Assembly: GCA_964016885.1 (NCBI GenBank) | Contig: OZ024757.1 | Location: 15,004,001-15,068,000 of the forward strand | From: Eledone cirrhosa | Taxonomy: Eukaryota | Reading direction: 5' to 3' | DNA: 64,000 nt | Shown here: one piece after another, positions 1,836 to 64,000 of the stretch | Position numbering within the stretch: the stretch's first letter is position 1 | How the letters are laid out: every line of letters starts with the position of its first letter | Translations under genes and position numbers: made by a program | Notes under the pieces: generated by a model | What the model saw: only the letters and a program-made list of their open reading frames with translations | What the model was told of the DNA's origin: nothing | Databases searched by the model: none

Positions 1836-1839
1836 TTTT

Positions 1840-3818
1840 CTAACCACAATTACTATGGGTTCTAATGATTCGGCGGAAGTAACAGATCTTGTGGGAATTT
1901 ATATCACCCACAGACTACAAGGAAAATTCAAGGATCTCCACGGTGATGATGCGCTCCTATTAGTTAAGCATATGAACAACCAGAATTTAGAAAGGATGCG
2001 TAAAAATATCAGAAAGCTTTTTAAGGAACTAGGATTAAATATTACATTTGAATATAACCTCAAAGAGGTCAATTTCCTTGATGTTACTTTGAATCTCAAT
2101 ACAGATACGATTAAACCGTTCCATAAACTAAATGAGAACCTTAAATATGTAAATACGAGTTCTAACCATCCACTCTCTATAATTAAATCCATCCCTAGAA
2201 ATGTTTCTCTTAGAATCTCCCGCCTGTCGTCCAACCAACAAACCTTCAAAGAACATGCCGATATTATGATGATGCACTTAGGAAAGCCGGACACCTAGAT
2301 AATATAGAGTATATAGTCGAAGATCACCAAAACACCCAAAATAAATCCCATAGGAGTAGAAATAGCACAGAATCACCACCATACATACACTACCGCAATA
2401 GACACAATAATAGTCGCACACCACCAAACAGAAGGCGATGTAAAGAGTATATTTGGTACAACCCGGTCTATAACAACTCTATCCTCACGATTCTTTCGAT
2501 TAGTAAAAAAACACTTTCCAACATCACATAAATATAATAAAATCTTAAACCCTAACACTATTCGACTTTCATATTCAACCGCCCCTAATATTGAACATAT
2601 AAAAAAGCTTAACGCAAAACGGTTGTATAAATGCCTTCCAACACATAACAATACACGTAAAACATTAGCTATAACATCACAAAACAACAAACATCCTGCC
2701 CTACCTAAGCAACCTCATCAACCCATCCATGACAATACAACGCAAAATTATAATTGTAACTGTGTCCAACCAGGAATGTGACCGTTGAACAATCAGTGTC
2801 TTGAACGCAACATCATATACAAATGTACTATCGAATCGGATAGACAGAAGTGGTACTATGTGGGATCTACAGCCACCTCCTTCAAATCACGCCTTTATAG
2901 ACATCGTTACTCGATAAAACATGAAAACCAGCGTTATGTAACAACACTCGCAGACAAGGCTTGGCAGTTGCGTGAAAATAACCAACAATTTCACCTAAAA
3001 TGGGATATAATAGCCCCACATATCCCACGGACAGGAATTTTGTAAATTATGTAATATGGAATTATTATGAAATCCAAAAACATTTTATTAAATAACAGAA
3101 TAGAGCGATCGTTATACTGTAACCATCGCTTAAAATCTATATTTTCATATTATAAATACTACCAAGATTGAACGCCTGTCTCTATCTCCGTTTGATTGTC
3201 AAAATAGATATTAACATTCTCTATTAGTCTTAATTCTATCAACTCTTCTATTATTTACCATTTAATATAAACTGCTATAGATAAAATGAGATTTCTGATT
3301 TCTTAATTCAATTCCCTAATGCATATACCAGCTACTAGCATTGATGTTATTCAGTAGCAATCGAAATCTCCCCCTTCCCCAATTGACACTTTATAATTAA
3401 TACTACTACACCAAATGACCAGCCCTGTCCACTGTCCAATTGGTCAAGTATAGATTAAAATTGGCACTCCCAAAAATTCTTATTTAGATAAAATAAACCA
3501 TTTACTCATGGTATTCTCATTAGAAACCCTTTATATACTTGTTTAGCAGTAAATTGAATTACCATCTGTCATATACTATCCCCTCTCTTCTTCCTCTATT
3601 ACTAATATAAATACTTCAATTTTTCTGATTTTATCCAATTTATCCAAAATCTCTGAAGAAGTGACAACTGATTATACATTTGCTATCGAATACTTGCTAA
3701 CATTATATGATTACGCAAGCAGCGATACATAGGTATTCCGTCTGTTACAGAAACATATGTCAATACCTAATAAATTCTTTTTAAAAAAAGCACTTTCATT
3801 TTATATTCATCTTTTCTA
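1840..3818 (+). mobile_element. Penelope-like element 3' half (RT C-terminal part, GIY-YIG endonuclease, 3' region), degraded
   Basis: TMGSNDSAEVTDLVG, VNFLDVTLNL, SNHP RT motifs; QCLERNIIYKC...YYVGST...FKSRLYRH GIY-YIG at 2785-3045. Confidence 0.92.
3653..3774 (+). ncRNA. Candidate hammerhead ribozyme in Penelope pseudo-LTR (copy at 9919-10040)
   Basis: CTGAAGA core 3653-3659, stem II GTGACA/TGTTAC, GAAA 3750-3753, palindromic stem III ACATATGT, GTC site 3759-3761, AATAAA just downstream; stem I weak. Confidence 0.6.
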
Positions 3819-3974
3819 CATTTTCTCCGGAATATAATTTATACTCGTTGAGCAAACCTACACGTACGCTGTTCATCTCTAACGTAACGATATATTATCA
3901 CTACATTATTGATACCCTGAAATTTTAATAATCTCCTATACAGTTGAGCAACTAATTCAGCATACGCCTCTAAA

Positions 3975-5028: not shown

Positions 5029-7831
5029 GTGGTGGAAGTCTTCGTGAGGGGGAAGCCACAGCGAGCCCTCGTGGATACGGGCTGTACGACGACACTGGTG
5101 ACCGCAGGGGTGGCGCAGAGGTGGGGAGGGAAGAGCAGCGTAAGGGCAGTCGACGGCAGGAAAATTGAATGCCGAGGTCGCAGCGAGATGGAAATAGCGG
5201 TACGGGGAAGGACGATAAGGCTTTCCGCCATCGTGGTAGACAGTGTGGTGGATGGGATCGGCGTGGTTATGGGCATGGACGCGATTGGCCGTCTAGGGGG
5301 CGTCACGGTGAACAATGTCGGTGTGTCGTTTGGCGCCGCTGCATCGGTATGCGCTGTGAGTGCACGTCATGAGAACCAGAAGGCCCACAAGGAGCAATAC
5401 CCCGCTTACACTGTACAGGACAAGGACTTCAAGGCCGTGTTTGATGGGCAGCGATGGGTTGTTGAGTGGTACTGGAAGGGAGAACCACCAACACTGAAGA
5501 CCAAAGTGGGCTGCTATCAACACACATTGAAGGGAAACGCTAGGGGCGAGTTCGAGCGAGAAGTAGAGAGATGGCTCGAAGAGGGCATACTGCTTCCCTG
5601 GAAGGAGGTGAAGTGCGGAGTATTGCCGTTGATGGCGGTGGTGCAACCCACGAAGAGCAAGGTGAGGCTGGTGCTGGACTATCGAGAGCTGAACGAGCAT
5701 GTGTCATGCCACACGGGTGGCGAGGTCACGGATGTCTGTGGGGAAACCCTGCGTGAGTGGAGACGCATGACGGGGGGTTCAGCGATCGTGGATCTAAAGT
5801 CGGCTTACTTGCAGTTGCATATAGATGAGAAGCTCTGGCGGTATCAGCTGGTCAGGTATAAGGGCCGGACATATTGCCTGACCAGGCTCGGTTTCGGGCT
5901 GAGCTCCGCACCGAAGATCATGGCGGCGGTCCTCAAGACCGCTCTGGGGAGGGCCGACAAGATAAAGAGGGCTACTAACTCCTACATTGACGACATCCTA
6001 GTGGACGAGTCGGTGGTGTCGACGGCGGAGGTCACGAGCCATTTGCGGAGGTATGGACTGACTGCGAAGCCATCAGAAGCATTGGAGGGAGGAGCCGCGC
6101 TGGGACTTAGGCTACGGCGAGATAAGACGGGCGTTTTGGTGTTCCAGAGGGGAAACGAAGTTCCGGAACTGGGCCCAAGTATGAATAGGCGGGAGCTTTT
6201 CTCGGTGTGTGGAAAGCTGGTGGGTCACTACCCGATCGCTGGGTAGCTCCGGACGGCATGCAGCTATGTCAAGAGACGAGCGGGAGGGGTGACTTGGAGT
6301 GACAGAGTGGGAGAGAGAACGGTGGCCATGATGCAGGAGATCGTGGGGAGGGTGAAGGCCGACGACCCAGTGCGGGGACGCTGGTACGTTCCCAAATCAC
6401 GGAGCGGGACCGTATGGTGCGATGCCAGCAGCATAGCGCTGGGTGTCACGTTGGAGATAGGAGGTGTTGAGGTCGAGGATGCAGCCTGGCTTAGAAAGAA
6501 GGACGACTGCAGCCACATCAATGTGGCCGAGCTGGACGCGGTGTTGAGAGGGGTGAACCTCGCCCTGCGGTGGGGGCTGCGCACCATCGAGATACGCACC
6601 GACTCGGCTACCGTACTCGGATGGGTAAGATCAGTGCTCACCAGTGAGAAGAGAGTGCGAACGAGAGGCGCGGCGGAGATGCTGATAAAGCGCCGCCTGG
6701 GAACGTTAGGAGAGCTGGCCACCGAGTTCGACCTGAACCTGAGCGTAGTGTTCGTGCCCTCAGAGAAAAATAGGGCGGACATCTTAACTAGAGTGAAGAA
6801 AGCCTGAATGGAAGCGCCGGAGGAGGTAGAGGATGAGATAGCTGCCGTGTGTCGGTTGACCGAGTTAGACCTGAAGGGGTTACATGACATGCACCACATG
6901 GGGGTGGATAGGAGCCTGTTCCTAGCCAGGAGAATCGACTCGGACGTTAGCAGACACAGGGGGGTGGTTAGAGGCTGCGTCCGATGTCAGTCCATTGATC
7001 CCGCCCCGGGTGTACACGAAACGGGAAGCCTCCCGGTGGATCGCGACTGGAAGCGATTAGCGGTGGATGTGACGCACTACCAGCAGGGAACGTACCTCTA
7101 GATGGTCGACTGTGGACCAGGTCGAATGGCGATATGGAGGGAGATGAAGACTGGAACGGCCGAGGAAATCGTGCAGACATTGAGAGGTGTTCTTGGAGCG
7201 GGGCCCTGTGGATGAACTGCTGATGGACAACAGCGCAGCGTTCCGCTCGGAGGCACTGAGGGAGATGCTCGATGGATGGAAGGTGGACCGTTTCTTCAGA
7301 GCGGCGCACAGGCCGAGCGGGAATGGAATCGTGGAGCGACACCACCGGACGATCAAGGCAATGGCGGAGCGGGCCATATCTCACCAATGGAGGCAGTGTT
7401 CTGGTATAATATGTCCCCTCGGGTTGGACAGGTCGAGGAATCGGTGCCACACAGAGCAGTATTCAAATACGAGTGGCGGCACCCGTGCACGCCACCACAA
7501 CGGCCAGTGGGGAGAGAGAGTGCATTCGTGCAGGTGGGCGAAGAAGTCTGGGTTAAGCCCCCCAGATGTACGGTGCACATCTCAATGGGGAAGGGGAACG
7601 GTGACGGCCGTAAATTCAAAGAACAATGTGTCCGTGGACGGGGTACCACGTCATGTCCTGGATGTAAGAAGAATCACTGTGTCAACGGACTCCGAGGAAG
7701 AGGAAACCCAAGATGAGGTGGAAACCCAGAGCCCTGCCCCAATACTACGAAGATCGCAACGAAGTCGTAGACCACCGACCTGGACGGCAGACTTTCATAT
7801 GCAGAGGGACGAGGGGGAATTTGATCCTTGA
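5029..7831 (+). pseudogene. pol: Gypsy pol polyprotein with in-frame stops (6244, 6805, 7099) and frameshifts
   Basis: Consecutive ORFs 5029-6246, 6289-6807, 6808-7101, 7187-7831 carry PR, RT, RH and INT motifs. Confidence 0.92.
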
Positions 7832-7844
7832 GATCAGGGGGGCG

Positions 7845-8101
7845 TGTGGGTATGGTGTGGTGTGCGGTGGCCGGGGGAGTGCTCGACCGGAAGGTGTTTT
7901 TGAGTGCTCGACCGGAAGGGGTCTTTGACCGGAAGGATGCTCGACCGGAAGGGCCAGGAGAGGGCCTCTCTAGTGGTGACCAGCATACGGTGAGGACGCG
8001 TTTTGGGCAGTTCCCGGTGTTAAGCAGTCGGACGCACGTGGAAGAGGAGTACCTGCAGTGGAATTTAGCGGCGCCTGTGAAAAGCGGTAAGTGAGATAGC
8101 T
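7845..8101 (+). repeat. Partial Gypsy 3' LTR with four GACCGGAAGG repeats (copy at 1579-1835)
   Basis: Starts TGT right after purine tract; no terminal ACA seen, so truncated. Confidence 0.65.
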
Positions 8102-8104
8102 TTT

Positions 8105-10084
8105 TCTAACCACAATTACTATGGGTTCTAATGATTCGGCGGAAGTAACAGATCTTGTGGGAATTTATATCACCCACAGACTACAAGGAAAATTCAAGGA
8201 TCTCCACGGTGATGATGCGCTCCTATTAGTTAAGCATATGAACAACCAGAATTTAGAAAGGATGCGTAAAAATATCAGAAAGCTTTTTAAGGAACTAGGA
8301 TTAAATATTACATTTGAATATAACCTCAAAGAGGTCAATTTCCTTGATGTTACTTTGAATCTCAATACAGATACGATTAAACCGTTCCATAAACTAAATG
8401 AGAACCTTAAATATGTAAATACGAGTTCTAACCATCCACTCTCTATAATTAAATCCATCCCTAGAAATGTTTCTCTTAGAATCTCCCGCCTGTCGTCCAA
8501 CCAACAAACCTTCAAAGAACATGCCGATATTATGATGATGCACTTAGGAAAGCCGGACACCTAGATAATATAGAGTATATAGTCGAAGATCACCAAAACA
8601 CCCAAAATAAATCCCATAGGAGTAGAAATAGCACAGAATCACCACCATACATACACTACCGCAATAGACACAATAATAGTCGCACACCACCAAACAGAAG
8701 GCGATGTAAAGAGTATATTTGGTACAACCCGGTCTATAACAACTCTATCCTCACGATTCTTTCGATTAGTAAAAAAACACTTTCCAACATCACATAAATA
8801 TAATAAAATCTTAAACCCTAACACTATTCGACTTTCATATTCAACCGCCCCTAATATTGAACATATAAAAAAGCTTAACGCAAAACGGTTGTATAAATGC
8901 CTTCCAACACATAACAATACACGTAAAACATTAGCTATAACATCACAAAACAACAAACATCCTGCCCTACCTAAGCAACCTCATCAACCCATCCATGACA
9001 ATACAACGCAAAATTATAATTGTAACTGTGTCCAACCAGGAATGTGACCGTTGAACAATCAGTGTCTTGAACGCAACATCATATACAAATGTACTATCGA
9101 ATCGGATAGACAGAAGTGGTACTATGTGGGATCTACAGCCACCTCCTTCAAATCACGCCTTTATAGACATCGTTACTCGATAAAACATGAAAACCAGCGT
9201 TATGTAACAACACTCGCAGACAAGGCTTGGCAGTTGCGTGAAAATAACCAACAATTTCACCTAAAATGGGATATAATAGCCCCACATATCCCACGGACAG
9301 GAATTTTGTAAATTATGTAATATGGAATTATTATGAAATCCAAAAACATTTTATTAAATAACAGAATAGAGCGATCGTTATACTGTAACCATCGCTTAAA
9401 ATCTATATTTTCATATTATAAATACTACCAAGATTGAACGCCTGTCTCTATCTCCGTTTGATTGTCAAAATAGATATTAACATTCTCTATTAGTCTTAAT
9501 TCTATCAACTCTTCTATTATTTACCATTTAATATAAACTGCTATAGATAAAATGAGATTTCTGATTTCTTAATTCAATTCCCTAATGCATATACCAGCTA
9601 CTAGCATTGATGTTATTCAGTAGCAATCGAAATCTCCCCCTTCCCCAATTGACACTTTATAATTAATACTACTACACCAAATGACCAGCCCTGTCCACTG
9701 TCCAATTGGTCAAGTATAGATTAAAATTGGCACTCCCAAAAATTCTTATTTAGATAAAATAAACCATTTACTCATGGTATTCTCATTAGAAACCCTTTAT
9801 ATACTTGTTTAGCAGTAAATTGAATTACCATCTGTCATATACTATCCCCTCTCTTCTTCCTCTATTACTAATATAAATACTTCAATTTTTCTGATTTTAT
9901 CCAATTTATCCAAAATCTCTGAAGAAGTGACAACTGATTATACATTTGCTATCGAATACTTGCTAACATTATATGATTACGCAAGCAGCGATACATAGGT
10001 ATTCCGTCTGTTACAGAAACATATGTCAATACCTAATAAATTCTTTTTAAAAAAAGCACTTTCATTTTATATTCATCTTTTCTA
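8105..10084 (+). mobile_element. Penelope-like element 3' half (continuation of 3975-4720)
   Basis: Same as 1840-3818; RT and GIY-YIG motifs. Confidence 0.92.
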
Positions 10085-10709
10085 TATATACATATATATA
10101 TATATATTATTAATATATATGTTATTATTACATAACCATATATAAATTTATTATTAATCATCAACCAACAATTATTAATAAGAAGAAATAATAAAAAATA
10201 AAAAATTTTATGTTTAAAATATAGGAATGTTTCTAAACCCATGGAAATTCAGAGATTTTACCAAAGAATAATCTCTTCTTCGCAATACAGCATGAAGGAA
10301 ATTAAGTGATTTATTTGTAATTTAGATAGCTCTAAGGATTAAATGTTATAAAGGTTAAGATGATAAAAAAGTTAAGATTATAAAAAAAATCTTATACTAT
10401 TTTATAGTAAGTTATAATTTTATAAATTTTATATATTTTATAAATACACCTGTTATACAGTTGTGACTGTTAAAATATAAGTTTGTTTACTATTACGTCT
10501 TAAAGTTTTTCATAAGGATACATCTAAAGCATAAACAGTAAAAAACCTTTTATACGTGTTCATTCATAGAATGTATTCAAATTATACATTTTGATATATA
10601 TACATATACATACAGACATACATACATGTATACATGATGGCTGCCCCCTCATTATCGAGTATGGCCATTGCACGAGAAAAAAAAAAATAAAATGAAAATA
10701 AAATAAAAA

Positions 10710-36510: not shown

Positions 36511-36856
36511 CTTCATTTCATTTCATTTCATTTCATTTTACGTCTGCTTTTCCCTGCTTGCAAGGGTGGGACGGGAACTGATTCTGGCTTGATTTCTACA
36601 GCTGGATGCCCTTCCTAACGCCAACCTCATTTACAGTGAGTGCTGGGTGCTTTTTTGCCGTGGCACCTCCACGACTACTTTGCAGTGGAATGATAGGGAC
36701 CCCAGTCCCTATCATCTCATTTCTACAGCTGAGTAAACTGGAGCAATGTGAATTAAAGTGTCTTGCTCAAGGAAACAACACATCACCCGGTCTGAGAATT
36801 GAACTCATAACTTTTCGATTGTAAGCCCAATGCTCTAACCACTAAGCCATGTGCAT
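36511..36856 (-). mobile_element. tRNA-derived SINE with RTE-derived body and tail
   Basis: A box TGGCTTAGTGG and B box GAGTTCAATTC on minus strand; tail matches the RTE 3' end at 18512-18553; (ATGAA)n tail. Confidence 0.88.
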
Positions 36857-49147: not shown

Positions 49148-52125
49148 TCTATGTAACTATGACTCTCTCTTGTCGGCACCACCCTTGGCGTGGGAAGAGA
49201 GCTTAAGTCAGTGGTTTTGAGCTGTACGAGAGAGGCAGCTCTGTCCCGCTTCCCTTTTTTTTTTTTTTTTTTGTGGTGGTCAGTGTTGACTCGGCAGGTT
49301 CTACCATTCTCGGTTGGTCGGCCACATTAATGACGAACTAATTGGTGCCTAAATTATGATGATACAAAATTTGAAGTCCATACGGCAGCTGGGGGCCGAA
49401 AAACCAGTGGCCGGAGGGAATGGGATGGGTCCCTCCGGCCTGTCGCAGCGTTCTGTAATGGCCCGCTGCGATTGGCAACTGTCTCCGAGGACTGGCAAAG
49501 AGCCGGGCCATGTTCCTCGTAAGAGCGCCGGCTCACTGGATTTGACCCACCGGAGGTTTCAAATACCGACTATACTAGTCCGTAGGGATACACCCGATAA
49601 ATTTATTCTGGAGTACCCAACCCACGCTTTGGTTTTGAGAGGCAAGCAACTGCCGTCGGGCCAACGGTCGCGGGGGAGGACTGTCTCGAGATTCCGTGTA
49701 AGAGCGTAGTCTTGTTTTGTTCGTGCTGTTCGCGTCATTTCTCGGGCCCGTATGGTGGGCGGAGCATTTGCTGCGCTGTCATGAGCGAAAGGCAGTTTTT
49801 AGGTGCAGCAAATGCGGTAGGGAAAGTTGCCACCTGCATTCGCTCCGGGTGCACGTGGGCCGATGTACGGGCAGGAGATGGGACGACATGCCCGCCGTCT
49901 CGGACTTGATCCACAGGTGCGGAGAGTGCGACCGTGCCTTCCGTACGGTCGCAGGAAGATCGCAGCACGAGAGGCATCGTCATCCAGTGGCAGCCAATCG
50001 CCGCAGGATCGCGAAACACGCGGAGGAGATCGGAAAGAAGCGTGCCTCTCGTGCTGCTGCTGCAGCCTCTCGTGAGAAGGCTGGGCAGCCCCGCACCCGG
50101 GTTGGCCGTGGTTGTTGGTCCGAGCAGGAGGTTTCGGTCCTTCTCGAGAAGGAGGACGAGCTTCTTAGGGCGGGGTGTCGTCGTGTCAATCTTGGGATCG
50201 CTCCTTTCCTGCCCGGAAAGACTGTGAAACAGATTAGTTCGAAGAGGAGCGATCTAAGGAATAAAAAGAAATACTGTAAACAGTCCCCTACCCGTTCTGC
50301 AGGGTCGTTAGAAAGACGGCCGCCTATGGATTGGAGAGTTGGGTTTGTCGAGTTTGGCGTACGCGGATGACAATGCTCTGGTGTCCGGCTCCTCGGTGGA
50401 GATGCAGCGCCTAGTTGACAGGTGTGTGTCTTTCTACCGGGAGATGGGGCTAGCAGTCAATGTCTCCAAATGCGCCTTTTTCTCGATTAAAGCGTGGGGA
50501 AAGTCTTTCTTGGTCAACACGGACTCCGCCCCTGAGACTGATGGGATTCAGCTCTTGAGAATCGACCCTGCGGAGAAGTGTTCTTACTTAGGTGTTAGTG
50601 TCGGCCCGTGGTCGAAGCTCGAGTTGAAAGTTTCGGTGGAGCAGGTGTCACAGTGTGTCGATCAGATTTGCTGTGCTCCACTGAAGCCCCGGCAGAAATT
50701 CCATCTACTACAGCAGTATTACCTGCCTAGATTGTTTTAGTCTGGTGCAGGTGATGCCTAGCCGGATTAAACTTGAGGAGCTAGACGCGGCGATTCGCGC
50801 GGGAACACGTAAGATTATGCATCTGCATGCGTCGACCTCGGTTTCCTTCTTGTACTGTAGCAGGCGGCACGGTGGTTTGGGTCTTTGCCATCTGGCGAAG
50901 TTAATCCCATCCATCGTGATTCGTAAGAATCTCCGCCTGCTAGCCTCTCGATATGACGCGGTTCGTCTCATGGCGGAATCGGCGGGCCTCGCTATGCGGA
51001 ACAGCGAGATAGCGTTACGCTATGGGCTACCTCCGGTCTCGCCTGGCGCGTCCACGTACGAGCCCGATCTTGGACGACAGGCCGCCGAGGCCTGGGCCTC
51101 CCAGCCCGTCCAGGGGGTGTGTGCGGGGTCGTTTCGGGGTGACCGAATCGGCAACGATTGGTTGCTCCGCCCGGGTGTGGCTTCTGAGGGGACCTTTCTG
51201 AGTTGTCTGAAATTGCGAACCAATACGTTTCCCACTCGGGAATGCTTGACGAGAGGAGGTCGCGGTGATAAGTCCTGCCGACGCTGTGGAACGGCCGCGG
51301 AGACAATCGCCCATATCAGTGGCCAGTGCCCTCTTCTCAAGAGAAAGCGACTGGCTCGGCATAACCAGCTGTGCCAACTGATAGCGGGCGAATCTATGCG
51401 CCTCGGTTGGGCGGTTGGCTGGGAGCCGTCCTACCGGGTGAACGATGCGAGGCTCATTCCAGACCTGGTGATGACGAGAGGAGGTGCGACGTTGGTCGTT
51501 GATGTTACGGTGAGATTTGAGCAGGGGAGTGCCTTGATTGACGCTGCGGCGGAGAAGGTACGAAAATACCTTCCCCTAACGGCTCTGCTGGAGAATGAAA
51601 CGGGTGGGAGAGTCTCAGTCCATGGCTGTCCCATTGGGGCCTGCGGAGCCTGGTCCGTCGCGGCTGAGGAGACACTTGGCGCTCTTGGGATCGTTGATGA
51701 TGCGTTCAGGAGGCTCTTGTGTCGTAGAGCGATGCTAGCGACGCTGGGCATGCTTGAATGAGCTCTGGCTCAGCTCGGCTTGCTGGCGGGCTCGCGAGGC
51801 GGGGCTATCTGGACTCTTCTGGTTCCTCTTGCTGTAACTGACTGTCGTCTGCTCCCCTCTTGTATGGACTCACACTGGGTTCGGGGGATGATTGCCTCGG
51901 ATTTTTTTTTTTTTTTTTTTACGCGTTAGAGCCCGAGTCCACTCTTCCTAACTCAGATTAACAAAACTAAACCGGTCAGCGGTCGGATAGGAAATCCGAG
52001 TAGGAGAGGTGAGACGACTCCGCCGTTTCCGCTAGTCTGGGCGTTCGTGGTGGTTTCACGATGGCACGCCCCTTACCCCCCCGTCGCAGGGTTACGCGTT
52101 TATTTGTTAATTACTAAAAATTTAT
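49148..52125 (+). mobile_element. R2 lineage A, copy A2 (about 1.2-kb internal RT deletion at ~50326)
   Basis: Starts with the same CTATGTAACTATGACTCTCTCTTGTCGGCACC junction as 40145; CGCCTA|TGGATT joins A1 positions ~41878 and ~43085. Confidence 0.93.
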
Positions 52126-55100
52126 TAATTGTATGTTGAGTGGGAGAGTGGAAACTTGGGTCTCGAGGAGCGGTTTTTTTTTTGTTTTTTTTTTTTGATG
52201 AAGGAAATAATGGATTGACAGATGGCGGGTCGAATTGCGGTCGGCGTGACAGGATCATTCTGCCACGGCCGGCGTGCGGTTTGATCTGCGATCAGAACTA
52301 ACCGGAATGACAGGGGCGCACCGTTCATGCCATAAGAGCTGAGATGGCGCTGGCCCGTGGGACCACCCACTTCAAATAACAGGGAAAGGCGTCTCGTACC
52401 TTTAAAAAAGGTGCGAGTTAAATGCCAGCTACCATAGCCAACGGACCGCCACACCCCCTTGTCGCAGGGAGAGAGCTTAAATTCGTAGAACGAGCTACGC
52501 GGGAGAACCGGCCCCCATCCGGAGGCCGCTTCGGTAGGTGTAACCAGTCCCGATTGGTCGTTCCACACCAGAATGAACTAAGCGTGTGGAAAGAATAAAA
52601 CTATGGCAAAGTTGAAGAGTACAATTATCAGACGGGTGCATGGCCCCGCAAACATGCGGCCGGTTGGAACGGAACGAATCCAACCGGTCAGGGGCTGTTG
52701 GTTGAATCAACCGGCAGCCACGCGAAGCTATCGTTCCTTGGTGCAGACAAGGGATCGGGTCCGTACTACAGTAAGACAGCCGATCCCATCGGATTCAAAC
52801 TTTATTCCTACTATCGTGGTCCGTAGCGGAACGGGTGGCCGCTTCACCCTCGACTATGGCACCCACATCTTGGCGCTCTCCGGGAACCAGCTCCGCCGCC
52901 ACCTGGCTGTGGTTCCCGCCCCTGAGTGCGCCGATCACGCGACATTGGCCCCGGATGACGCCGAATCGGACACGCTTATTCCGTACCGGGTTCCGTTGTT
53001 GCACTACCGCCTTTGCTCCCGTAGCTTCTCAACGCCGGCCTCCCTGGGCCGTCACCAGGTCGATCGACGCGGGGTCTGTACCGTGTTCAGATGCCGTTTC
53101 TGCGGCCAGAGGAGCGTGGCGCTCCATTCGATCAGAGTGCGCGCGGGACTCTGCTCCCGCACTCTGCTCGTTCCGGCCGCTGCCGCCGGCGTGCCGGCTG
53201 GGTCCGAGAGTTGCAGCCTTTGTGGTAGAGTCTTTGCCACCGTGTCCGGAGTGTCGCAGCACATGCGCCACCGACACCCCGACGAGTCGAACGCAAGACG
53301 TATCGCCAGTTATTCCAAGGAACTGGCGGAGAAAAGAGAGAAACGTGCCCTGGCGAGGGCTGGGCCCGAGCCCGTCCCACGTCGGAAGGGCCGTGGTTGT
53401 TGGTCTAACACGGAGATCAGCATACTCCAGTTGGAGGGAGAGCGGTTGGCGCGGGAGGGCGTGCGATTCGTGAACGTGGTCCTCGAGTCCTTTCTCCCCG
53501 GCAAGAGTCGTAAACAGATCAGCGACAAGCGACGAGACCTGACGGCGAAAGGCAGGTCTAGTGCACCGGTGATCCCGCTTCCCGCGGCGCTGGCCGCCTC
53601 GAGCCTCTCCCAAACGGCTGCCCCCGACAACGCGGCCTGGCGGGAGATGTTTAGAGCCGCCACCGTCCCGGGTCGTTCGAAGTGGTCGGTGGAGTTCGCG
53701 GAATGCTCTTTGGAACTCGCTGAGGGGTTCACAGAGGAAATCTGGCGGAGGTAGGAGGGAAGCCTGGGCGATTGGATCGGCTCCCTCCGACCTGTCGGTC
53801 CCAGGGCAGAGAGCGGTCCCCGACGTAGGGGTAAGGGAGTGACGGTGAGACCGCGAGGGGCTGGAGGGAGAGGCCAGCGCGCGGTGCAGTCCCGGTTTCA
53901 GAGGCTTTATGAGAAGGACCGACGGCGGCTTCTTAGGCTGATACTGGGCGAGAGTGCGAGCGGCGTCTGCCCAGTTCCGCTGGTCGAGGTAGGGGGGGAT
54001 TACCGGGCTAGGTTCGCGGAGCGAGGTAGCGTAGTTGATCTTGGCGCGTATCTGCCCTCCGAGGGCGTGGTGAACTCCGCGCTGCTGCGCCCGTTTAGTG
54101 TCCCGGAGATTACCTCGGCTCCCGGGGGGCTGAGGGCCGGCTCGGCAGCAGGCCCAGACGGGGTCCCCCAACGGGCGATTCGGAGGGCCGGCCCAGAGGT
54201 CAGCGCTAATCTGTTCAACTGCTTCCTTCTGGCGGGTCGTGTACCAACGGTGCTGAAAGAAGGCAGGTCCATTCTTCTGCCTAAAAGCGGAAGAAACCCG
54301 AACGACCTGTCCGACTGAAGGCCCCTGACGATTTGCTCTGCGATTTATCGTCTCTACACGAAGGTTCTGGCGAGGCGCTTCTTGCAAGCCACTTCCCTGA
54401 ACCAGGCGCAGAGGGGATTCATTAAGGCAGACGGGTGCGGCGAGAACGTTTTTGTGATTCGCGAACTGATTGCGATGGCGCAGGGTCGGAGAGGTGCCCG
54501 ACGTCTGGGCCGTCTGGATGTCGCCCTTTTGGATCTCGCAAAGGCCTTCGACACGATTCCCCATCAGTTGGTGGCCGCCGGTATGAGGCGGAAGGGATTT
54601 TGCGCTCACATCACTGACCTTGTCGCTGACCTGTACACGGGGGCGACGACCAGGTTTGAGTTGCGCTCGGGGAGGAGCGACCCCATACCGATTCTGAGAG
54701 GAGTCCGACAGGGTGATGCGCTTTCCCCGATTCTGTTTAACATAGCGACGGGCATATCGTGCTTGGCATACGCGGACGACACGGCACTGTTGTCCGGCTC
54801 CTCAGGGGGCCTGCAGCGTCTGCTCGATCAGAGCGCGAGCTTCTTCGGGGAGGTCGGCATGGCGGTGAATGTGTCTAAGTGTACGTCGTTCGCGCTGGAG
54901 TCGCGGTCCTCCCGTACCTTCTTTGTGAATAGGGATGCGTCCCCGGTGATCGGCGGTAGGCCTCTGCCGCGGATTGACCCTGCCGACAGGTCCTTCCGAT
55001 ATCTCGGGGTGGAGGTCGATACTTCGTCCGGTGGTGGCGAGGTGGTCTCCGTGGAGTGGTTGCGCGGATCCCTCGAAAAAATCCGCGCGGCGCCCCTCAA

Positions 55101-56413
55101 GCCGAGACAGATGTTGGATCTGGTTCAGACCTTTCTCCTCCCGAGATTCCTCTACGGTCTGACGATGAATCTTCCGGCGCGATGCGTGCTCGAGTCACTG
55201 GATGCGGTGGTGCGTTCCGGGGTGCGGTCGTTCTTACATCTCCACGAGTCGACATCGTCCCATTTCCTCTACAGTTCCAGGGCGGATGGCGGACTCGGCC
55301 TCCAGGAGCTGGCGAGATGTATCGCGGCGAACGTGATTAAACTCTACCGCAGACTCGAGACATCTAGCTCGGCTGCAGTCCGGGGGCTTGCAGACGCGGC
55401 TGGTCTGCGTGCGAGGTGCGCCGAGATTGCCACCAGGTACGGACTGCCGCTGCCGCCTTCTGACCCGGAGCGGCCTTATGATCCCGGCATCCGAGCGTTC
55501 CACTCGCGGGCGTGGGAGTCGCAGCCGGTGCAGGGGGTATGTGCGGCCGCCTATCGTGGGAACGCAGAAGGCAACGACTGGCTATACAGTGGCGGCCCCG
55601 GCCCCCTCGAGGAATGGACGTTTCTGTGCTGCCTTAAGATCCGTACGAACACGTTTCCCACGCGGGAATGCCTCGCAAGGGGAGGCAGGGGAGGTCGCTC
55701 ATGTCGTAGATGCGGAGCGAGGGTCGAGTCGCTCTTGCATCTGAGCGGGGCGTGCCCCGCATACGGGCGCCTTCGGCTTCACAGGCACAACTCGGTGTGC
55801 GGTTGGATCGGAAAGGAAGCGGAGCGCCTGGGCTGGTCGGTCGCGGTGGAGCCGGTCTTCTTCGTGGAGGGCCGAAGGCTCATTCCGGATCTGGTATTTA
55901 GCAAGCCGGGTTGGACGGTCATAATTGATGTGACGATTCGGCTCGAGCAGGGTTCGGCCCTTGAGAGGGCGGCCGAGGAGAAAGTGTCGTAATATTCCCC
56001 GTTGGCGGATTCGCGTCGGGAGGGCGATCCCCGGACGACGGTCTTCGTGCACGGTTTTCCAATTGGGGCTTGTGGCAGCTGGTCCGTCGCGGCCGAGGCA
56101 GCTTTGAACGATCTTGGAGTTGGTGGCGGTGCGTTCCAGAGATTCCTCTGCAGGCGCACTCTCTGTAACACCATGGGGATGTTACGTGATTGAGCACGCC
56201 CGCGGGGCGCCTCCTTTGCTTCGTATTAGACCTTTCGGGCCCATCGATGGCGACCTCCCGTAAAAGCTCACCGTGGCCGAGCCCGCCCTCCCAACTAAAA
56301 CTGGGCTGGGTGTCGGCCGTTGAGTTACAGTCGCCAACGATCCGGCTCCCGGCTTTTTGTTTCAGACACGGATCCCCGCCACAGGGCGACGCGCCGGTGT
56401 CCGAACCTCGAGC
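52126..56413 (+). mobile_element. R2 lineage B, copy B2 (ORF 52603-56193 with stops; 3' UTR truncated)
   Basis: All R2 domains including RHN, PDLVF, IIDVTI. Confidence 0.94.
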
Positions 56414-57327
56414 TTTTTTTTTGCAGTGGTCAGTGTTGACTCGGCAGGTTCTACCATTCTCGGTTGGTCGGCCACATTAATGACGAACTAATTGGTGCCT
56501 AAATTATGATGATACAAAATTTGAAGTCCATACGGCAGCTGGGGGCCGAAAAACCAGTGGCCGGAGGGAATGGGATGGGTCCTTCCGGCCTGTCGCAGTG
56601 TTCTGTAATGGCCCGCTGCGATTGGCAACTGTCTCAGAGGACTGGCAAAGAGTCGGGCTATGTTCCTCGTAAGAGCGCCGGCTCACTGGATTTGACCCAC
56701 CGGAGGTTTCAAATACCGACTATACTAGTTCGTAGGGATACACCCGATAAATTTATTCTGGAGTACCCAACCCACGCTTTGGTTTTGAGAGGCAACTGCC
56801 GTGGTGGCTCGCGCGCGACCCCATGGACTCTGTCTGTGTGGCCAACAGTCGCGGGGGAGGACTGTCTCGAGATTCCGTGTAAGAGCGTAGTCTTGTTTTG
56901 TTCGTGCTGTTCGCGTCATTTCTCGGGCCCGTCTGGTGGGCGGAGCATTTGCTGCGCTGTCATGAGCGAAAGGCAGTTTTTAGGTGCAGCAAATGCGGTA
57001 GGGAGAGTTGCCACCTGCATTCGCTCCGGGTGCACGTGGGCCAATGCACGGGCAGGAGATGGGACGATATCCCGCCGCCTCGGACTTGATCCACAGGTGC
57101 GGAGAGTGCGACCGTGCCTTCCGTACGGTCGCAGGAAGCTCGCAGCACGAGAGGCATCGTCATCCAGTGGGTGCCAATCGCCGCAGGATCGCGAAACACG
57201 CAGAGGAGATCGTAAAGAAGCGTGCCTCTCGCGAGAGGGCTGGGCAGCCCCGCACCCAGGTTGGTCGTGGTTGTTGGTCCGAGCAGGAGGTTTCGGTCCT
57301 TCTCGAGAAGGAGGACGAGCTTCTTAA
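56414..57327 (+). mobile_element. R2 lineage A, copy A3 (5' fragment)
   Basis: Leader end, zinc fingers and start of Myb; ends at the piggyBac. Confidence 0.92.
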
Positions 57328-59871
57328 CCCTTTAGCGTTCAAAGCGACAAAAACCGACAAAATTATGTCCCCTTTCATTTATTCAAACCGACAAAAACCG
57401 ACATTTCAGACCACTCGTAGATCTCCTTCTAAAAATAAACATTGACATCATCAAAATCTCGTCAATTCGAGATTACAGCGAGATAAAGCCCTTACGCGCG
57501 AAAATTAACTCTTAGTATAGTTAAAGACCTTGTGATAACACGTGTTTTTAACTTTGAAATTGTAACATGGCTTCCGAAAGCAGCGACAACGATTTTGAAG
57601 GTTTTACATTCTACGACATTCAAGATAAAAAAGAAACAGAAGATAATATCAGTGATTTATCTTCAAATGAATCAGATATATTTATTTCTGATATATCTGA
57701 TGATGATGATAGTCACTTTGAAAGTGAAAGCGAAGAGATATCTGACACCATTGAAAAAACACCAACGTGGTTGAAAGAAACAACACCGATACATGTTTCG
57801 GATTTTAATGAAAATTCTGGACCACAACACACATTACCACCCGATGCTAAAGCTCTGGATTATTTTTTTTTATTTCTACCACAAACTTTCTTCAAAGTTG
57901 TGGCAGAAGAGACAAATCGCTATGCACAACAACAGATTTCTAATCGAGCAAAACCCGATCTGTTATGGCGTCCGACAGATTCTGCCGAAATGAAAGCGTT
58001 TTTTACCATAAACATTATGTTTGGTATTAAACAATTTCCACGACTGTGGAATTATTGGAGTACTGATATAAGGTTTGGTGACCCTTATATATCTAGTATT
58101 ATGGCCAAAACGAGATTTATAAAATTAAACCAGTATTTGCATCTGGTTGATACTACAAATGCCCCTGGTAGAAATGAATCGAATTACGACCCACTGTACA
58201 AAGTACGACCATTAATTGAAATGTTGACGGAAAAATTTAAAAGTATGTATTTACCTGGAAAAAATCTTAGTGTTGATGAAGCTATGATTGGGTATAAGGG
58301 TAGGGTTCATTTCAGACAGTATATGCCAGCTAAACCCACCAAATGGGGCATCAAAGTGTGGGAACTGTGTGAATCGGACACGGGATATTGTGTAAACTTT
58401 GATGTTTACACAGGAAAAAAACTTAACGGAGAGAGAAAGCACGGGTTGGGTTACGATGTTGTGTGGTCGCTGACTCAACCCTTCCACTTTCAACACAGAC
58501 ACATTTATTATGACCGTTTTTTTTCTTCGGTGCTTTTAGCAGAGGATCTTGCCCTTGTAAATACGTACACCTGCGGCACAATAATGAGCAATCGGAAAGG
58601 GCTACCCCAAGAAATAAAAGTTGCGAAACTAAAAAACAGAGGAGACATTCTCCAAATACAAAAAGAGAACATGTTAGCCACAGTGTTCAAAGACAAACGG
58701 CAAATTTTGTTCCTGAGTTCTAACCAACAACCAGGTGTTGGGGCTGAGGGTAGACCTTTAGTTAACCTCTCCTACAATAAATATATGGGTGGGGTTGACA
58801 AATCCGACCAATATTGCGCGTATTACCCAGTTGGACGCCCTGGAAAGAAATGGTGGAGATACATCTTGTGGTTTTTAGTGAATTTAACCATTGTGAATTC
58901 TTATATTGTATTTACTAAAAGCCACAAGGATCCGCCACCACCAAAGGACTACTGCCACATGAAATTTCGCGTGGACATTGCATCCCAGCTACGTGGGGGA
59001 TATACTTCTCGCAAACACAAAGCTGGGAAAAAATCAAAATTAGCAGTGGTCCACAAAGAAAATATTGATTTTCATAAAGTGGAGAGAATTGATGGTAGGA
59101 GGAAGGTTTGCCGATTGTGCTCTTTGCAAAAGAGAAAAACTGTTAAAGGTTACGCAATCCAAACCCTATTTATGTTCCTTTTGCAAAGTGCCCTTATGTA
59201 AAGGGTGCTTTGGGCAGTATCACGATAGAAATATTGTCTGACAATATTGAAAACAATATTTTAAAAATATATTAGCACACATATACAAAAACACCTGCAT
59301 TCACCTGTGACACACCTGTTAATGAACTTATATATTGGGAACATTCTGTTACGTAATTTTACACCGTACATTGTGTAAGAGTACATTGCCAATATTATTT
59401 TGACTGGGGAAAAGGTTTTATACATTTTTTTCAATGAAAATATTTGCCTAGAATGTAGAGAAAGACTAAAACATTGTACTGATTACACCTGCATTTTTAA
59501 TTAATTCACCTGTTCGGAAAACTGCTAGAATTGATGGAAATCATAATCTAGATCATTATTGGATTTTTTTGCAACAAATCTAACAGGTAAGGCAGATAAA
59601 GTTTAAATTTTTGTGTTTATCCATAAAGTTATTACTTTTACACCTGTTAATTAATTTTACCTGCCCATAAAAGTCAAATTTAACAAAAAAAAATCAGGTA
59701 AAAATATATAATTGTAAATTATAGTTCTTTAAACGTCTACTGACAAAATTTCAAGTCTGCACATAGAAAATTAAAGTAATTAGAAACAAATAAAATTGAT
59801 AACCCTCTTGAGTGAAAATAATGCGAATAGATGAACATGACATTTGACAATTCAATGTGAATGCTAAAGGG
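57328..59871 (+). mobile_element. piggyBac DNA transposon, 2544 bp
   Basis: TTAA at 57324-57327 and 59872-59875; 14-bp terminal inverted repeats CCCTTTAGCGTTCA / TGAATGCTAAAGGG (1 mismatch). Confidence 0.97.
57567..59201 (+). CDS. piggyBac transposase (frameshift in C-terminal cysteine-rich domain)
   Basis: Acidic N-terminus; SVDEAM, YYDRFF, GGVDKSDQ DDD triad; KPTKWGIK; rest of the Cys domain is in another frame to 59241. Confidence 0.95.
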   Translation: MASESSDNDFEGFTFYDIQDKKETEDNISDLSSNESDIFISDISDDDDSHFESESEEISDTIEKTPTWLKETTPIHVSDFNENSGPQHTLPPDAKALDYFFLFLPQTFFKVVAEETNRYAQQQISNRAKPDLLWRPTDSAEMKAFFTINIMFGIKQFPRLWNYWSTDIRFGDPYISSIMAKTRFIKLNQYLHLVDTTNAPGRNESNYDPLYKVRPLIEMLTEKFKSMYLPGKNLSVDEAMIGYKGRVHFRQYMPAKPTKWGIKVWELCESDTGYCVNFDVYTGKKLNGERKHGLGYDVVWSLTQPFHFQHRHIYYDRFFSSVLLAEDLALVNTYTCGTIMSNRKGLPQEIKVAKLKNRGDILQIQKENMLATVFKDKRQILFLSSNQQPGVGAEGRPLVNLSYNKYMGGVDKSDQYCAYYPVGRPGKKWWRYILWFLVNLTIVNSYIVFTKSHKDPPPPKDYCHMKFRVDIASQLRGGYTSRKHKAGKKSKLAVVHKENIDFHKVERIDGRRKVCRLCSLQKRKTVKGYAIQTLFMFLLQSALM

Positions 59872-61175
59872 TTAAGGACGAACTAATTGGCGCCTAAAAT
59901 AATGATTGTAATAAATTATTTTAAAAAAAATCATTTATATCCGTACGGTAGCTGGGGGCCGTTTTAAAACCAGTAACCGAGGGGTCGGGATGGGCCCCTT
60001 AGGTTTACTAACCGCAGCGGGCCGTTGTGGTAGCTCCGTGATCATTACAGCGGATCGTGATGGGATATGGAGTCGCCGTGGTGGCTCGCTGTGGTACTTA
60101 ACCACCCTCGAGGGCTGACAGGGAGCCGGGATACGCCCTCTGGATTAGAGCCGGCTCAAACCTTTTTTTTTTTTTTTGTCCTTGTTTTTCTTTTTGTGTG
60201 GGCGCGGAAGTTCCTGGAAACTCTCTTCCTAGTTTTTTTTTATTAACTCGGTGAGCGGTCGGATATAATATCCGAGAAGGAAAAGTAAGACGTCTCCGCC
60301 GTTCCGCTAGTCTGGTGGTTCGCCTTGGGAAAGCGATAGAACCACCTTATCCCCCCGTTGCAGGGTTACGCGTTGCTTAAAGGAAAGTGCTTTTCTTTTT
60401 GTATTATTAACAGTTTCGTTATTTTAGGAATAGGAAGGGAGTGATGAAATGGCTTCTGGAGCGCCCCACTTTTTTTTTTAGTACAATGGCACGGCCAAGG
60501 AGTTTAGAACCTCTCTGTGCAGGATTCGTGCAACAGGATCTCCGCGCGGGGTTCGGTTCGGGTTGCTCACTTGGTGCGTCCAACTGGATTGACAAAATAG
60601 CACGGCCGGGAGCGCTTAGTGTCTCGCATTGTTCGCTCGCTGAGGGGGTTCCCAGCCAGCCCTCGCGGGGTCCATGGCTTGGACTGCTCTCTTGGCGTGA
60701 CCAACCGAATTGACAGGGCACACCGTTCATGCCATAGTTCGCTTGATGGCGTTGGCCCGTGGGACCACCCACTTTAAAAAAAGGGAAAGGCGTCTTATAC
60801 TTTGAAAAAAGTATAAGTTAAATGCCAGCTAAAAGAGCTGTACGACTCTTTGAGCTGTACGAGTGAGCCAACTTGACGCGTTTCTTTTTGCGGATTAACG
60901 CGTGTCCGTACCTTTCGACCGAGGTGCGGGCTCAGGTTGGCTCGGCAGGTTTTACCATACTCGGTTGGTCTGCCACATTAAGGACGAACTAATTGGCGCC
61001 CAAAATAATGATTGAAATAAATTATTAAAAAAATCATTTATATCCGTACGGTAGATGGGGGCCGTTTAAAACCAGTAACCGAGGGGTCACGTTGGGCCCC
61101 TTAGGTTTAATTCTCTTACCGCAGCGGGCCGTTGTGGTAGTCCCGTGATCATTACAGCAGATCGTGACGGGATAT
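59872..61175 (+). mobile_element. Non-autonomous R2-derived element (lineage C), tandem partial copies
   Basis: Leader end + post-AUG structures (59876-60160) fused via poly-T to A-like 3' UTR (60201-60374), then a new leader (60420-61175); no R2 ORF. Confidence 0.75.
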
Positions 61176-61364
61176 AGATCTTAAGTATATGTACGAAGGA
61201 CAGCGTATAGTTATATTTGACTTTACTCGTGCACAACAGAATCACATTAATTATGAAGTTATTGAATCTATTAAGAATGGTCTCAGATGCTCTTGTAAAT
61301 ACTTTTCTTATACTAAGTCATTTCCTATACCTCATGTTATTGTATTCGCCAACTTTTCTCCCAA
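61176..61364 (+). pseudogene. rep: CRESS DNA virus Rep helicase fragment (nanovirus/alphasatellite-like motifs)
   Basis: YEGQRIVIFDFTR (Walker B), NYEVIESIKNG...SCKY (B'), PHVIVFANF (motif C); AT-rich island within GC-richer R2 leader. Confidence 0.88.
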
Positions 61365-64000
61365 TGCGATTGGCAACTGTCTCCGAGGACTGGCAAAGAG
61401 CCGGGCCATGTTCCTCGTAAGAGCGCCGGCTCGCTGGATTTGACCTACCGGAGGATTCAGATACCGACCATACTAGTCCGTAGGGATACACCCGATAAAT
61501 TTACTCTGGAGTACTCTTGAGCGGTTTGAACTGCGGTCGGTACCTACCGGATTGACATCGGCACACCGTTCATGCCATATTGTCCTAATGGCGTTGGCCG
61601 TGGGACCACCCACTCTAAAAACAGGGAAAGGCGTCTCATGCTTTGAAAAAAAAAAAGCACGAGTTAAGTGCCAGCTACAATAGCCACCCTTGACGTGGGA
61701 AGAGAGCTTAAGTCTGTGGTTTGAGCTGTACGAGAGAGGCAGCTCTACCCCGCTTCCCCTTTTTTTTGTTTTTTTTTTGCGGTGGTTAGGGTTGACTCGG
61801 CAGGTTCTACCATTCTCGGTTGGTCGGCCACATTAAGACGAACTAATTGGTGCCTAAATTATGATGACACATATTTTGAATTCCATACGGCAGCTGGGGG
61901 CCGAAAATCCAGTGGCCGGAGGGAATGGGATGGGTCCCACCAGCCTGTCTCAGCGTTCTGTAATGGCCCGCTGCGATTGTCAACTGTCTCCGAGGACTGG
62001 CAAAGAGCCGGGCCATGTTCCTTGTAAGAGCGCCGGCTCACTGGATTTGACCCACCGGAGGTTTCAAATACCGACTATACTAGTTCGTAGGGATACACCC
62101 GATAAATTTATTCTGGAGTACCCAACCCACGCTTTGGTTTTGAGAGGCAAGCAACTGCCGTCGTGGCTCGCGTGCGACCCCATGGACTCTGTCTGTGAGG
62201 TTGGGCAAACAGTCGCGGGGGAGGACTGTCTCGAGATTCCGTGTAAGAGCGTAGTCATGTTCTGCTCGTGCTGTTCGCGTCATTTCTCGGACCCGTCTGG
62301 TGGGGCGGAGCATTTGCTGCGCTGTCATGAGCGAAAGGCAGTTTTTAGGTGCAGCAAATGCGGTAGGGAGAGTTGCCACCTGCATTCGCTCCGGGTGCAC
62401 GTGGGCCGATGCACGGGCAGGAGATGGGACGACATGCCCGCCGTCTCGGACTTGATCCACAGGTGCGGAGAGTGCGACCGTGCCTTCCGTACGGTCGCAG
62501 GAAGATCGCAGCACGAGAGGCATCGTCATCCAGTGGCAGCCAATCGCCGCAGGATCGCGAAACACGCAGAGGAGATCGGAAAGAAGCGTGCCTCTCGTGC
62601 TGCTGCTGCAGCCTCTCGTGAGAGAGCTGGGCAACCCCGCACCCGGGTTGGCCGTGGTTGTTGGTCCGAGCAGGAGGTTTCGGTCCTTCTCGAGAAGGAG
62701 GACGAGCTTCTTAGGGCGGGGTGTCGTCGTGTCAATCTTGGGATCGCTCCTTTCCTGCCCGGAAAGACTGTGAAACAGATTAGTTCGAAGAGGAGCGATC
62801 TAAGGAATAAAAAGAAACACTGTAAACAGTCCCCTACCCGTTCTGCAGGGTCGTTAGAAAGACGGCCGCCTAACCAGCCGAGTGGGGCGTCCATCCCGGT
62901 TGCATCTGATAGCGATTGGAGGAACTTGTTTGGCGAGGCGGTGGAGCAGGGGCGCTCCCAATGGTCCGCCGCTTTTGCCGAGTATCTTGTTACATTCTGT
63001 GATGAGATCACGGATGAGAGCTGGGATGCGTTCGCCGGGTTTGTCGACGAATGGGTGAACAATGTGTGCTCGAATAGAAGGCGTGGTGGAGCGCGAAACA
63101 CACGGAAAAAGAGTAGATTTAAAAGGCCCTATAAGAAAACTGGTAGAAAGAGTGCAAAGAGTTTGCTCTACGCTCGCTACCAGTTTTTGTATGACCGAGA
63201 CAGGAAGAAGCTCCTTACAGTAATTTTAGGCGAAGAGATGCAGGGGGTGTGTCCTGTCCCGATGGCGGACATCGCGTCTGCTTACGAGGACAGATTCTCC
63301 GTCCCTGGACCAGATGTGGATCTTAGCGCGTATCCCGCAACGGAGATGGTTAACAATGAGCCGCTTTTGCAGCCGTTTACCGTGTCCGAGGTGGTGGGTG
63401 CGCGTAGGTGTATGGATCCGCATTCGGCTCCGGGGCCCGACGGAATCACGCCCCAACAGGTGCGCGCAATCGACCCTGCAACTCTAGTGAACTTATTCAA
63501 CTGTTTGCTGCTAGCCGGGAGAGTTCCTGATATCTTGAAGCAGGGAAGGTCAGTCCTCATTCGCAAAAAGATGGACGGTCCGATCGACCTTTCCAATTGG
63601 AGACCCCTAACGATATGCTCTGCCATGTATCGTCTATACAGCAGGATTCTCTCCAAAAGAATGCTTCAGGTAACACCCCTGAACCCGGCCCAACGAGGGT
63701 TCATTAATGCGGACGGCTGCAGTGAGAATTTATTCTTACTGCAGCAACTAATCGCTCGCACTAGGGGTGGGCTAGCTCGATCGAGGATTCGGCAGTTGAA
63801 CGTGGCCTTCTTGGACCTTGCCAAGGCCTTCGATACTGTTCCGCACTCACTTGTGTTTGCGGGCATGAGAAGACTTGGATTTCACGAACACATGGTCGAA
63901 GTCGTGAGAGGTCTATACGAGGGCTGTGTCACAAAATTCTCGGTCGGAGCGGAAACGAGCAGAGCCATCTCGATCAGGCGAGGAGTACGGCAAGGAGATG
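61365..64000 (+). mobile_element. R2 lineage A, copy A4 (duplicated leader; runs off window end)
   Basis: Homology to A1. Confidence 0.95.
61861..64000 (+). CDS. R2 protein, apparently open reading frame to window end (partial)
   Basis: ATG at 61861 is in frame with RAISIRRGVRQGD at 63961; the ORF track lists no terminated ORF in this frame. Confidence 0.85.
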   Translation, partial: MMTHILNSIRQLGAENPVAGGNGMGPTSLSQRSVMARCDCQLSPRTGKEPGHVPCKSAGSLDLTHRRFQIPTILVRRDTPDKFILEYPTHALVLRGKQLPSWLACDPMDSVCEVGQTVAGEDCLEIPCKSVVMFCSCCSRHFSDPSGGAEHLLRCHERKAVFRCSKCGRESCHLHSLRVHVGRCTGRRWDDMPAVSDLIHRCGECDRAFRTVAGRSQHERHRHPVAANRRRIAKHAEEIGKKRASRAAAAASRERAGQPRTRVGRGCWSEQEVSVLLEKEDELLRAGCRRVNLGIAPFLPGKTVKQISSKRSDLRNKKKHCKQSPTRSAGSLERRPPNQPSGASIPVASDSDWRNLFGEAVEQGRSQWSAAFAEYLVTFCDEITDESWDAFAGFVDEWVNNVCSNRRRGGARNTRKKSRFKRPYKKTGRKSAKSLLYARYQFLYDRDRKKLLTVILGEEMQGVCPVPMADIASAYEDRFSVPGPDVDLSAYPATEMVNNEPLLQPFTVSEVVGARRCMDPHSAPGPDGITPQQVRAIDPATLVNLFNCLLLAGRVPDILKQGRSVLIRKKMDGPIDLSNWRPLTICSAMYRLYSRILSKRMLQVTPLNPAQRGFINADGCSENLFLLQQLIARTRGGLARSRIRQLNVAFLDLAKAFDTVPHSLVFAGMRRLGFHEHMVEVVRGLYEGCVTKFSVGAETSRAISIRRGVRQGD

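Follow-up and report, generated by a model that had tools for sequence, protein, structure and literature searches.

The window analysed here, a stretch of 64,000 nucleotides from Eledone cirrhosa (contig OZ024757.1, positions 15,004,001 to 15,068,000), consists of transposon-rich animal DNA. A 28S rRNA fragment ends near position 40140 at the R2 target site, and from there head-to-tail R2-type units run for 24 kb on the + strand. They include two coding lineages, designated A and B, which are 42% identical over 236 N-terminal residues. The A protein contains three N-terminal zinc fingers, Myb, a reverse transcriptase (RVT_1), a zinc knuckle and a restriction-like endonuclease. Its best matches among solved structures are the vertebrate R2 proteins 9nl2, 9dou and 9nl3 (E 7e-68 for the N-terminal part with the RT, 1e-50 for the C-terminal part). 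A is inserted at the 28S R2 site: upstream 28S sequence directly precedes the A-type 5' end, and TAGCC(AA) follows the 3' ends. The following features define the array:

39960..40159, + strand: 28S rRNA fragment whose end is the R2 site, with a short target duplication behind it; the array begins here
40160..40682, + strand: unit D, a second ORF-less unit (523 nt) with an A-type 5' end and a 3'-terminal module, then TAGCC; at the 28S junction
40686..45182, + strand: A1, a frameshifted full-length A-clade R2, then TAGCCAA and lineage B
57328..59871, + strand: piggyBac-type transposon with TTAA at both ends and an open 547-aa frame; left flank in the ORF of A, right flank in the leader of C1
61177..61365, + strand: seemingly captured 63-codon piece of a CRESS-DNA-virus Rep gene, which ends C2; same sense as the R2 units
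61684..64000, + strand: A4, an A-clade R2 whose 714-aa frame is still open where the window ends; candidate helper lineage

Frameshifts or deletions affect every complete coding R2 copy in the window. The last A copy keeps an open frame as far as the window end, and no complete intact helper ORF was found within the window.

Between 59872 and 61176 lie two partial copies, C1 and C2, of an R2 derivative without ORF. They are 92-94% alike, with a period of 1106 nt. In this derivative the 5' leader is followed by an AUG with an early stop and by about 260 nt of folded ORF start, which a poly-T joins to an R2 3' UTR. A complete C is estimated at ~1.15-1.2 kb, which is the period plus the missing head. 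The parts are as follows:

59872..60834, + strand: C1, with a complete 3' end; its 5' part is lost at the piggyBac
59876..59967, + strand: leader end of C1, AUG at 59902 and 21-codon micro-ORF
59935..60159, + strand: folded stretch from the R2 ORF start; three hairpins in common with A, one of them ~46 nt longer (folding z -2.6)
60160..60195, + strand: poly-T and junction of the internal deletion, at which ~3.6 kb is missing relative to A (the ORF and the beginning of the 3' UTR)
60196..60479, + strand: 3' UTR block homologous to A 44678-44945 (core 80% over 128 nt), AT-rich stretch and second poly-T
60480..60700, + strand: two long predicted hairpins in the 3' UTR; A has one at the equivalent place, with no significant sequence match between them
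60708..60834, + strand: 3'-terminal module with hairpin, predicted pseudoknot, GGGAAAG hinge and compensated stem; predicted R2-protein binding site
60835..60848, + strand: C1/C2 junction, a short duplication without a clean TAGC spacer
60849..61176, + strand: C2, starting inside the 5' head; leader with a covarying long-range helix; 3' part missing
61008, + strand: AUG of C2, with stop at 61026..61028, then the post-AUG fold

These boundaries differ from those of an earlier sequence-only reading, which ended the 3' UTR at 60420 and saw another leader behind it. The 3' UTR extends to ~60834, the supposed leader is the pseudoknot, hinge and stem of an A-clade 3' end, and the next copy starts at ~60849 inside the 5' head. 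The search sequence proposed with that reading, 59876-60420, omits the 3' module to which the R2 protein would bind. The name "satellite" was also given up. Only two partial copies are present, C2 being cut at both ends, and depth in the bin of their junction is 16-37 versus ~70-310 in the two bins on either side. A long head-to-tail run of C with a repeated junction, the hallmark of a satellite, was not found within the window. Nor was there any Rfam match up to E 10 in 59800-62200 that would indicate a tRNA-, 7SL- or 5S-derived head as in Pol III SINEs.

R2 origin and the 3'-terminal module

The earlier reading had traced both sides of the poly-T to lineage A, and these assignments withstand comparison with shuffled sequences. 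The leader end and post-AUG stretch (59876-60159) reaches a local score of 55 against A, the best of 300 shuffles reaching 24; against B the score is at chance level (168/300 shuffles reach it). The poly-T leads into a block homologous to the 3' UTR of A with a score of 123 (best of 300 shuffles 29); the matching stretch is 60245-60374, and B again scores at chance level. The early stop was likewise found as read, at codon 7 after the AUG at 61008, and the C1 AUG at 59902 is followed by a stop after 21 codons. No likeness to the A or B protein was detected in any frame of C (best tblastn E 0.19). C is thus an internal deletion of R2 without ORF, as R2 SIDEs are. Over 117 columns its identity to four A copies is 69-79%, against 92-98% among those copies themselves. 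The divergence of C from A therefore lies beyond that among the A copies, which upholds the claim that C is not a fresh deletion of a neighbouring copy.

The most conserved module occurs in five copies (60708-60834, 40552-40682, 45053-45182, 52305-52434 and 61550-61680). It is the 3' end of the elements and not a leader, because the element starts with another module at the one 28S junction present and because four of the five copies precede TAGCC or TAGCCAA, which are 28S letters downstream of the R2 site (taken from the Rfam consensus and from PMC11371274). The order of pseudoknot, purine hinge, stem and short tail also fits A-clade 3' UTRs, as described in the accessible part of PMC11601368. 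Finally, the annotated 3' UTR of the published element R2-1_ECi ends in this module, and its annotated 5' end is the other one, in the part of the record that was available. The same observations (28S junction, TAGCC, A-clade fold and R2-1_ECi) ruled out the module at 60700-60835 as a 5' ribozyme or leader start.

The C1 copy is the sole one of the five without a clean TAGC after it. With 85% identity to the module of A and 87-88% to a second 3' end type in the window, C has an R2 3' end with conserved structure, as is found in R2 SIDEs. Compared by eye with the published part of the sequence, its module agrees with R2-1_ECi in 71/76 letters and with A1 of the window in 63/76. The pattern of the terminal module gave 0 matches in viral contigs, and the single match in metagenome contigs was judged to be due to chance because its flanks are unrelated.

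The long 3' UTR of lineage B lies at 48506-49147 and 56200-56414 and is unrelated to that of A by a shuffle test; a likeness of the A or C 3' UTR to it did not beat shuffles and was discarded. A terminal module of B is absent from the window. The A-B pair is duplicated (40144-48505 versus 49148-55742, ~96% identity, with a deletion in the second copy), and both duplicates carry identical 28S-derived junction letters.

RNA pairing, the folded ORF start and the 5' head

It had further been claimed that pairings are kept in C although its primary sequence has diverged. This is clear for hand-picked helices, but a blind test gave P=0.08 overall. All 10/10 pairs of the terminal stem are formed, with 2 and 3 two-sided changes relative to the other two 3' end types, and one stem of the 3' UTR shows 3 two-sided changes. 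In the leader, a 5-bp long-range helix covaries in C, A and B. For the blind test, pairs were predicted from A alone. Of those changed in C, 27/68 still pair (null 21.8, P=0.08), and of those changed on both sides 9/11 still pair (expected 4.8, P=0.012). In the high-depth form of C described below, one of five paired or 1x1-loop sites of the post-AUG fold loses its pair, among the 40 of 223 differences listed.

The protein block conserved between A and B begins ~68 codons after the AUG, which suggests that this AUG is probably the real start and that the codons ahead of the block double as RNA structure. A short protein block before the first zinc finger (62068-62160, 52804-52900) is also conserved between A and B. 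By eye it recurs in published octopus R2s and may possibly be an extra N-terminal domain. Possible likenesses to viral IRES motifs and 18S rRNA were considered and dropped. Rfam scans of 59800-62200 and 40100-40900, taken up to E 10, yielded no match to a ribozyme, an IRES or an R2 family.

The 5' head is missing or cut in both C copies of the window. A contig at depth 116 joins 40 letters like the head of A (61683-61722) to the leader of C. When the heads of A and B were compared by eye with the published 5' ends of octopus and scallop R2s, as far as those were accessible, a 3-bp stem with two-sided changes between species, a TTG.CG loop, a later GAGCT-like strand and a purine strand able to pair with the 28S letters immediately 5' of the site were seen. 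Parts like P3, the loop, P1' and J4/2 are retained across the octopus and scallop R2s, P3 being compensated. By eye, this order of elements resembles an HDV-like core, if one whose loop and first base pair are unusual, and makes the head a candidate ribozyme. Three descriptor scans and two Rfam scans gave no convincing complete canonical HDV fold, the descriptors yielding either nothing or chance-like hits; one of the descriptors required a G at P1 and two P1.1 pairs, and the atypical head has neither. R2 HDV-like ribozymes often borrow P1 from 28S and vary widely, according to the part of PMC3774820 that was available. If the head cleaves, it would represent a distinct ribozyme variant. Candidate HDV-like heads with the TTG.CG loop lie at 40160-40235, 45190-45250 and 61684-61735.

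Further copies of C and their origin

Contigs from three runs (X1-X3) of one sample were aligned to 59500-61900 at 85% likeness. Unique contigs that match exactly have a depth of 10.9-11.9. Among the 24 of 1794 pieces listed, C-like contigs that are ~88-92% identical to the window have a depth of 109-210, 10-20 times the unique value, where summed contig depth is not to be equated with copy number. The C-like contigs reach this depth left and right of the internal junction as well as along the leader and the 3' UTR. In a depth-169 contig of this high-depth form, the frame opened by the AUG ends in a stop at codon 7. A second diverged copy (19 differences) spans the internal junction from 60098 to 60328, with 62 letters to its left and 168 to its right, and is present in all three contig sets at a depth of 12.8-16.3. 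At least four distinct forms (C1, C2, the high-depth form and the junction-spanning copy) differ by ~6-12%. No contig among those listed bridges the poly-T of the high-depth form, and no C-28S junction occurs among the 24 of 404 loose ends listed. A RAD run gave almost no depth over C apart from the poly-T tracts and two terminal-module bins, which is uninformative because the library is of reduced representation.

The earlier reading would have fallen with a single-copy junction. The junction is not single-copy, given the second diverged copy and the C-like contigs at 10-20 times unique depth; together with the stop at codon 7, this makes a one-off deletion an unlikely origin of C. C derives from R2, has lost the gene, retains 5' and 3' RNA modules and exists in several diverged copies of one design, a multi-copy family with a low-divergence core, like that of R2 SIDEs, in the one sample. 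The second junction-spanning copy and the high-depth contigs lend support to the view that it is an independently propagating non-autonomous R2 family. We consider it likely that C is a multi-copy, SIDE-like R2 family of ~1.2 kb without ORF that is copied in trans by an A-clade R2 protein.

Alternatively, a single deletion could have given rise to C, and unequal crossing-over of the rDNA units or array in which it lies could then have multiplied it passively as DNA, without further reverse transcription. The degenerate R2Br-deg of stick insects provides a precedent (PMC4370867, in the part seen). The high-depth form collapses into single contigs and is therefore homogeneous, the array holds a segmental duplication (40144-48505 versus 49148-55742, ~96%), and the blind pairing test is weak. 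Such a course would nevertheless have to account for at least four distinct C forms that differ by ~6-12%, for compensatory changes specific to C and a lengthened hairpin that is still paired, and for C2, which is cut at both ends and abuts a piece of viral mRNA in sense. We thus regard purely passive amplification as unlikely.

Much less probable still is a descent of C from a coding lineage that exists at full length elsewhere in the genome, of which C would be the UTR remnant and the window copies local one-off deletions. An identical junction is found in the second copy, depth is similar on either side of it, and the high-depth form stops at codon 7 after the AUG that A uses. A published coding relative, R2-1_ECi, is nearer to C at the 3' end (71/76 by eye), and the high-depth contigs that flank the poly-T are unbridged among the rows listed; R2-1_ECi, however, lacks the post-AUG insertion and the lengthened hairpin of C (by eye, in the published part of its sequence). 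An assembly artefact in this repetitive region is very unlikely in spite of the dense repeats and poly-T tracts, as contigs with 0 differences cover 60965-61147 and 61118-61394, across the C2, viral and next junctions, and another copy spanning the internal junction occurs in each of the three contig sets.

Proposed helper protein, known systems and neighbouring elements

As to how an R2 family without ORF is propagated, we infer that C is mobilised by reverse transcription. An intact C within a 28S gene would be co-transcribed with the rRNA, and the atypical HDV-like head would release the 5' end of the C RNA. The 3' pseudoknot, hinge and stem with a few nucleotides of rRNA would bind the helper R2 protein, made by a coding element, and prime reverse transcription of the C RNA at the R2 site. 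The copies in the window would then be older insertions that have since decayed. They would lie in an array of head-to-tail R2 units, away from any intact rDNA unit, that probably grew through successive insertions or template jumps before the piggyBac cut it. The rRNA spacers, the doubly cut C2 and the viral piece in sense would fit array building at the RNA level by insertion or template jumps, and such jumps are described for R2 (PMC3414825, in the section available).

The helper is most likely of the A or R2-1_ECi type, and on homology B appears unlikely in this role, though the window does not include the terminal module of B. The A protein of the window had been proposed as the helper, which is not clearly the case: the C module is nearer to that of R2-1_ECi (71/76) than to that of A1 (63/76), compared by eye with the published portion. 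The helper is perhaps a sister of lineage A. The proposal that C outlines a minimal cis-template was abandoned. C has ~1.2 kb, while for avian and turtle A-clade proteins templates of 68-98 nt with a 4-5 nt rRNA tail suffice in vitro (PMC11601368, in the part consulted), and unit D of the same array is, at 523 nt, shorter than C.

A SIDE derived from CR1 has reportedly been described. The best comparison for C is R2Dwi_SIDE of Drosophila willistoni, whose source, a Drosophila R2, we take to belong to the D clade. R2Dwi_SIDE, 529 bp long, is made up of a ribozyme and a poly(A)-tailed 3' end (Eickbush and Eickbush 2012, PMC3414825), and SIDEs are generally described as ribozyme and 3' UTR only (PMC3774820), both according to the parts of these papers that were available. 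In R2Dwi_SIDE, as in C, the 5' and 3' ends of an R2 are joined by an internal deletion, the ORF is gone, there are multiple copies, and structure is kept, R2Dwi_SIDE being 20-35% diverged from its coding element. C differs in its size of ~1.2 kb, its A-clade source and its lack of poly(A). The leader is retained in full in C, as are the AUG with its early stop and the ~260 nt of folded ORF start. R2Dwi_SIDE has been shown to cleave and to have junctions with 28S; for C, both are predicted.

R2-1_ECi, a coding R2 of 3818 nt listed for the curled octopus (PMC13188248, Table S2), is the closest published element in the literature available. In the published part, compared by eye, it has the 5' head directly after 28S, the leader and the AUG context in common with the elements of the window, the 3' UTR block and the terminal module, there followed by TAGCC, in common with C, and a protein near that of A. 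The 3' UTR fold of avian and turtle A-clade R2s agrees with that predicted for C in its pseudoknot, purine hinge, 3' stem, short single strand and rRNA tail; the hinge reads GGAAAAG there and GGGAAAG in C, and the predicted fold of C has a longer 3' stem and an extra conserved upstream hairpin (PMC11601368, in the part describing these folds). R2Br-deg of Bacillus rossius is, like C, a non-coding R2 present in many copies beside a functional one, but it is full-length, has a dead ribozyme and is thought to have spread by recombination (PMC4370867, accessible part), whereas C is internally deleted and keeps compensated structures.

R2 SIDEs are reported as rare and from Drosophila (PMC3414825, as far as available). 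No R2 SIDE outside Drosophila was found in the literature searched, which left most subscription journals out of scope, and the word "non-autonomous" has 0 occurrences in the portions seen of the main text of PMC13188248, PMC5035012 and PMC13580325. We suggest, only tentatively, that with C an R2 parasite derived from an A-clade element, and one outside flies, is seen for the first time. The first ~65 codons of these R2s may double as an RNA structure that is needed in cis: in C the frame is lost while the fold is kept and extended, together with a pseudoknotted leader and an early-stop AUG. Equally tentatively, the genome may hold a small ecosystem of A, B and the parasites C and D, strung head to tail by template jumping that also took up a viral mRNA. 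At its head would stand an HDV-like ribozyme whose active-site loop is rewired. A-clade R2 proteins are now used for RNA-templated gene insertion, and little is known of their 5' RNA needs in vivo. A long-lived parasite marks those RNA parts that selection has kept after the loss of coding. In C these include the 3' pseudoknot, hinge and stem, as expected, and also the leader pseudoknot and the folded ORF start.

The Rep piece that ends C2 has 44 matches, the best with 71% identity. It sits between two R2 units, its junctions are covered by contigs with 0 differences, and it looks like a viral mRNA captured by an R2 reverse transcriptase. The flanks of the piggyBac come from different elements; therefore, a deletion or recombination must have occurred beside it. 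At its 3' end, summed depth reaches up to ~20,000. The design of unit D, in which an A-type 5' part leads into a 3' end of a third type, occurs at 40160-40682 and 61366-61680. Its junction is found at a depth of 12-17 and its 3' end at 20-59, so D is of low copy number. Outside the array, 36600-36850 resembles what we take to be an octopus-type SINE, with a weak Rfam tRNA match at 36792-36849 on the - strand. Positions 1-39000 contain many broken frames and a 3.4-kb direct repeat (405-3821 versus 6671-10087) of 99.9% identity.
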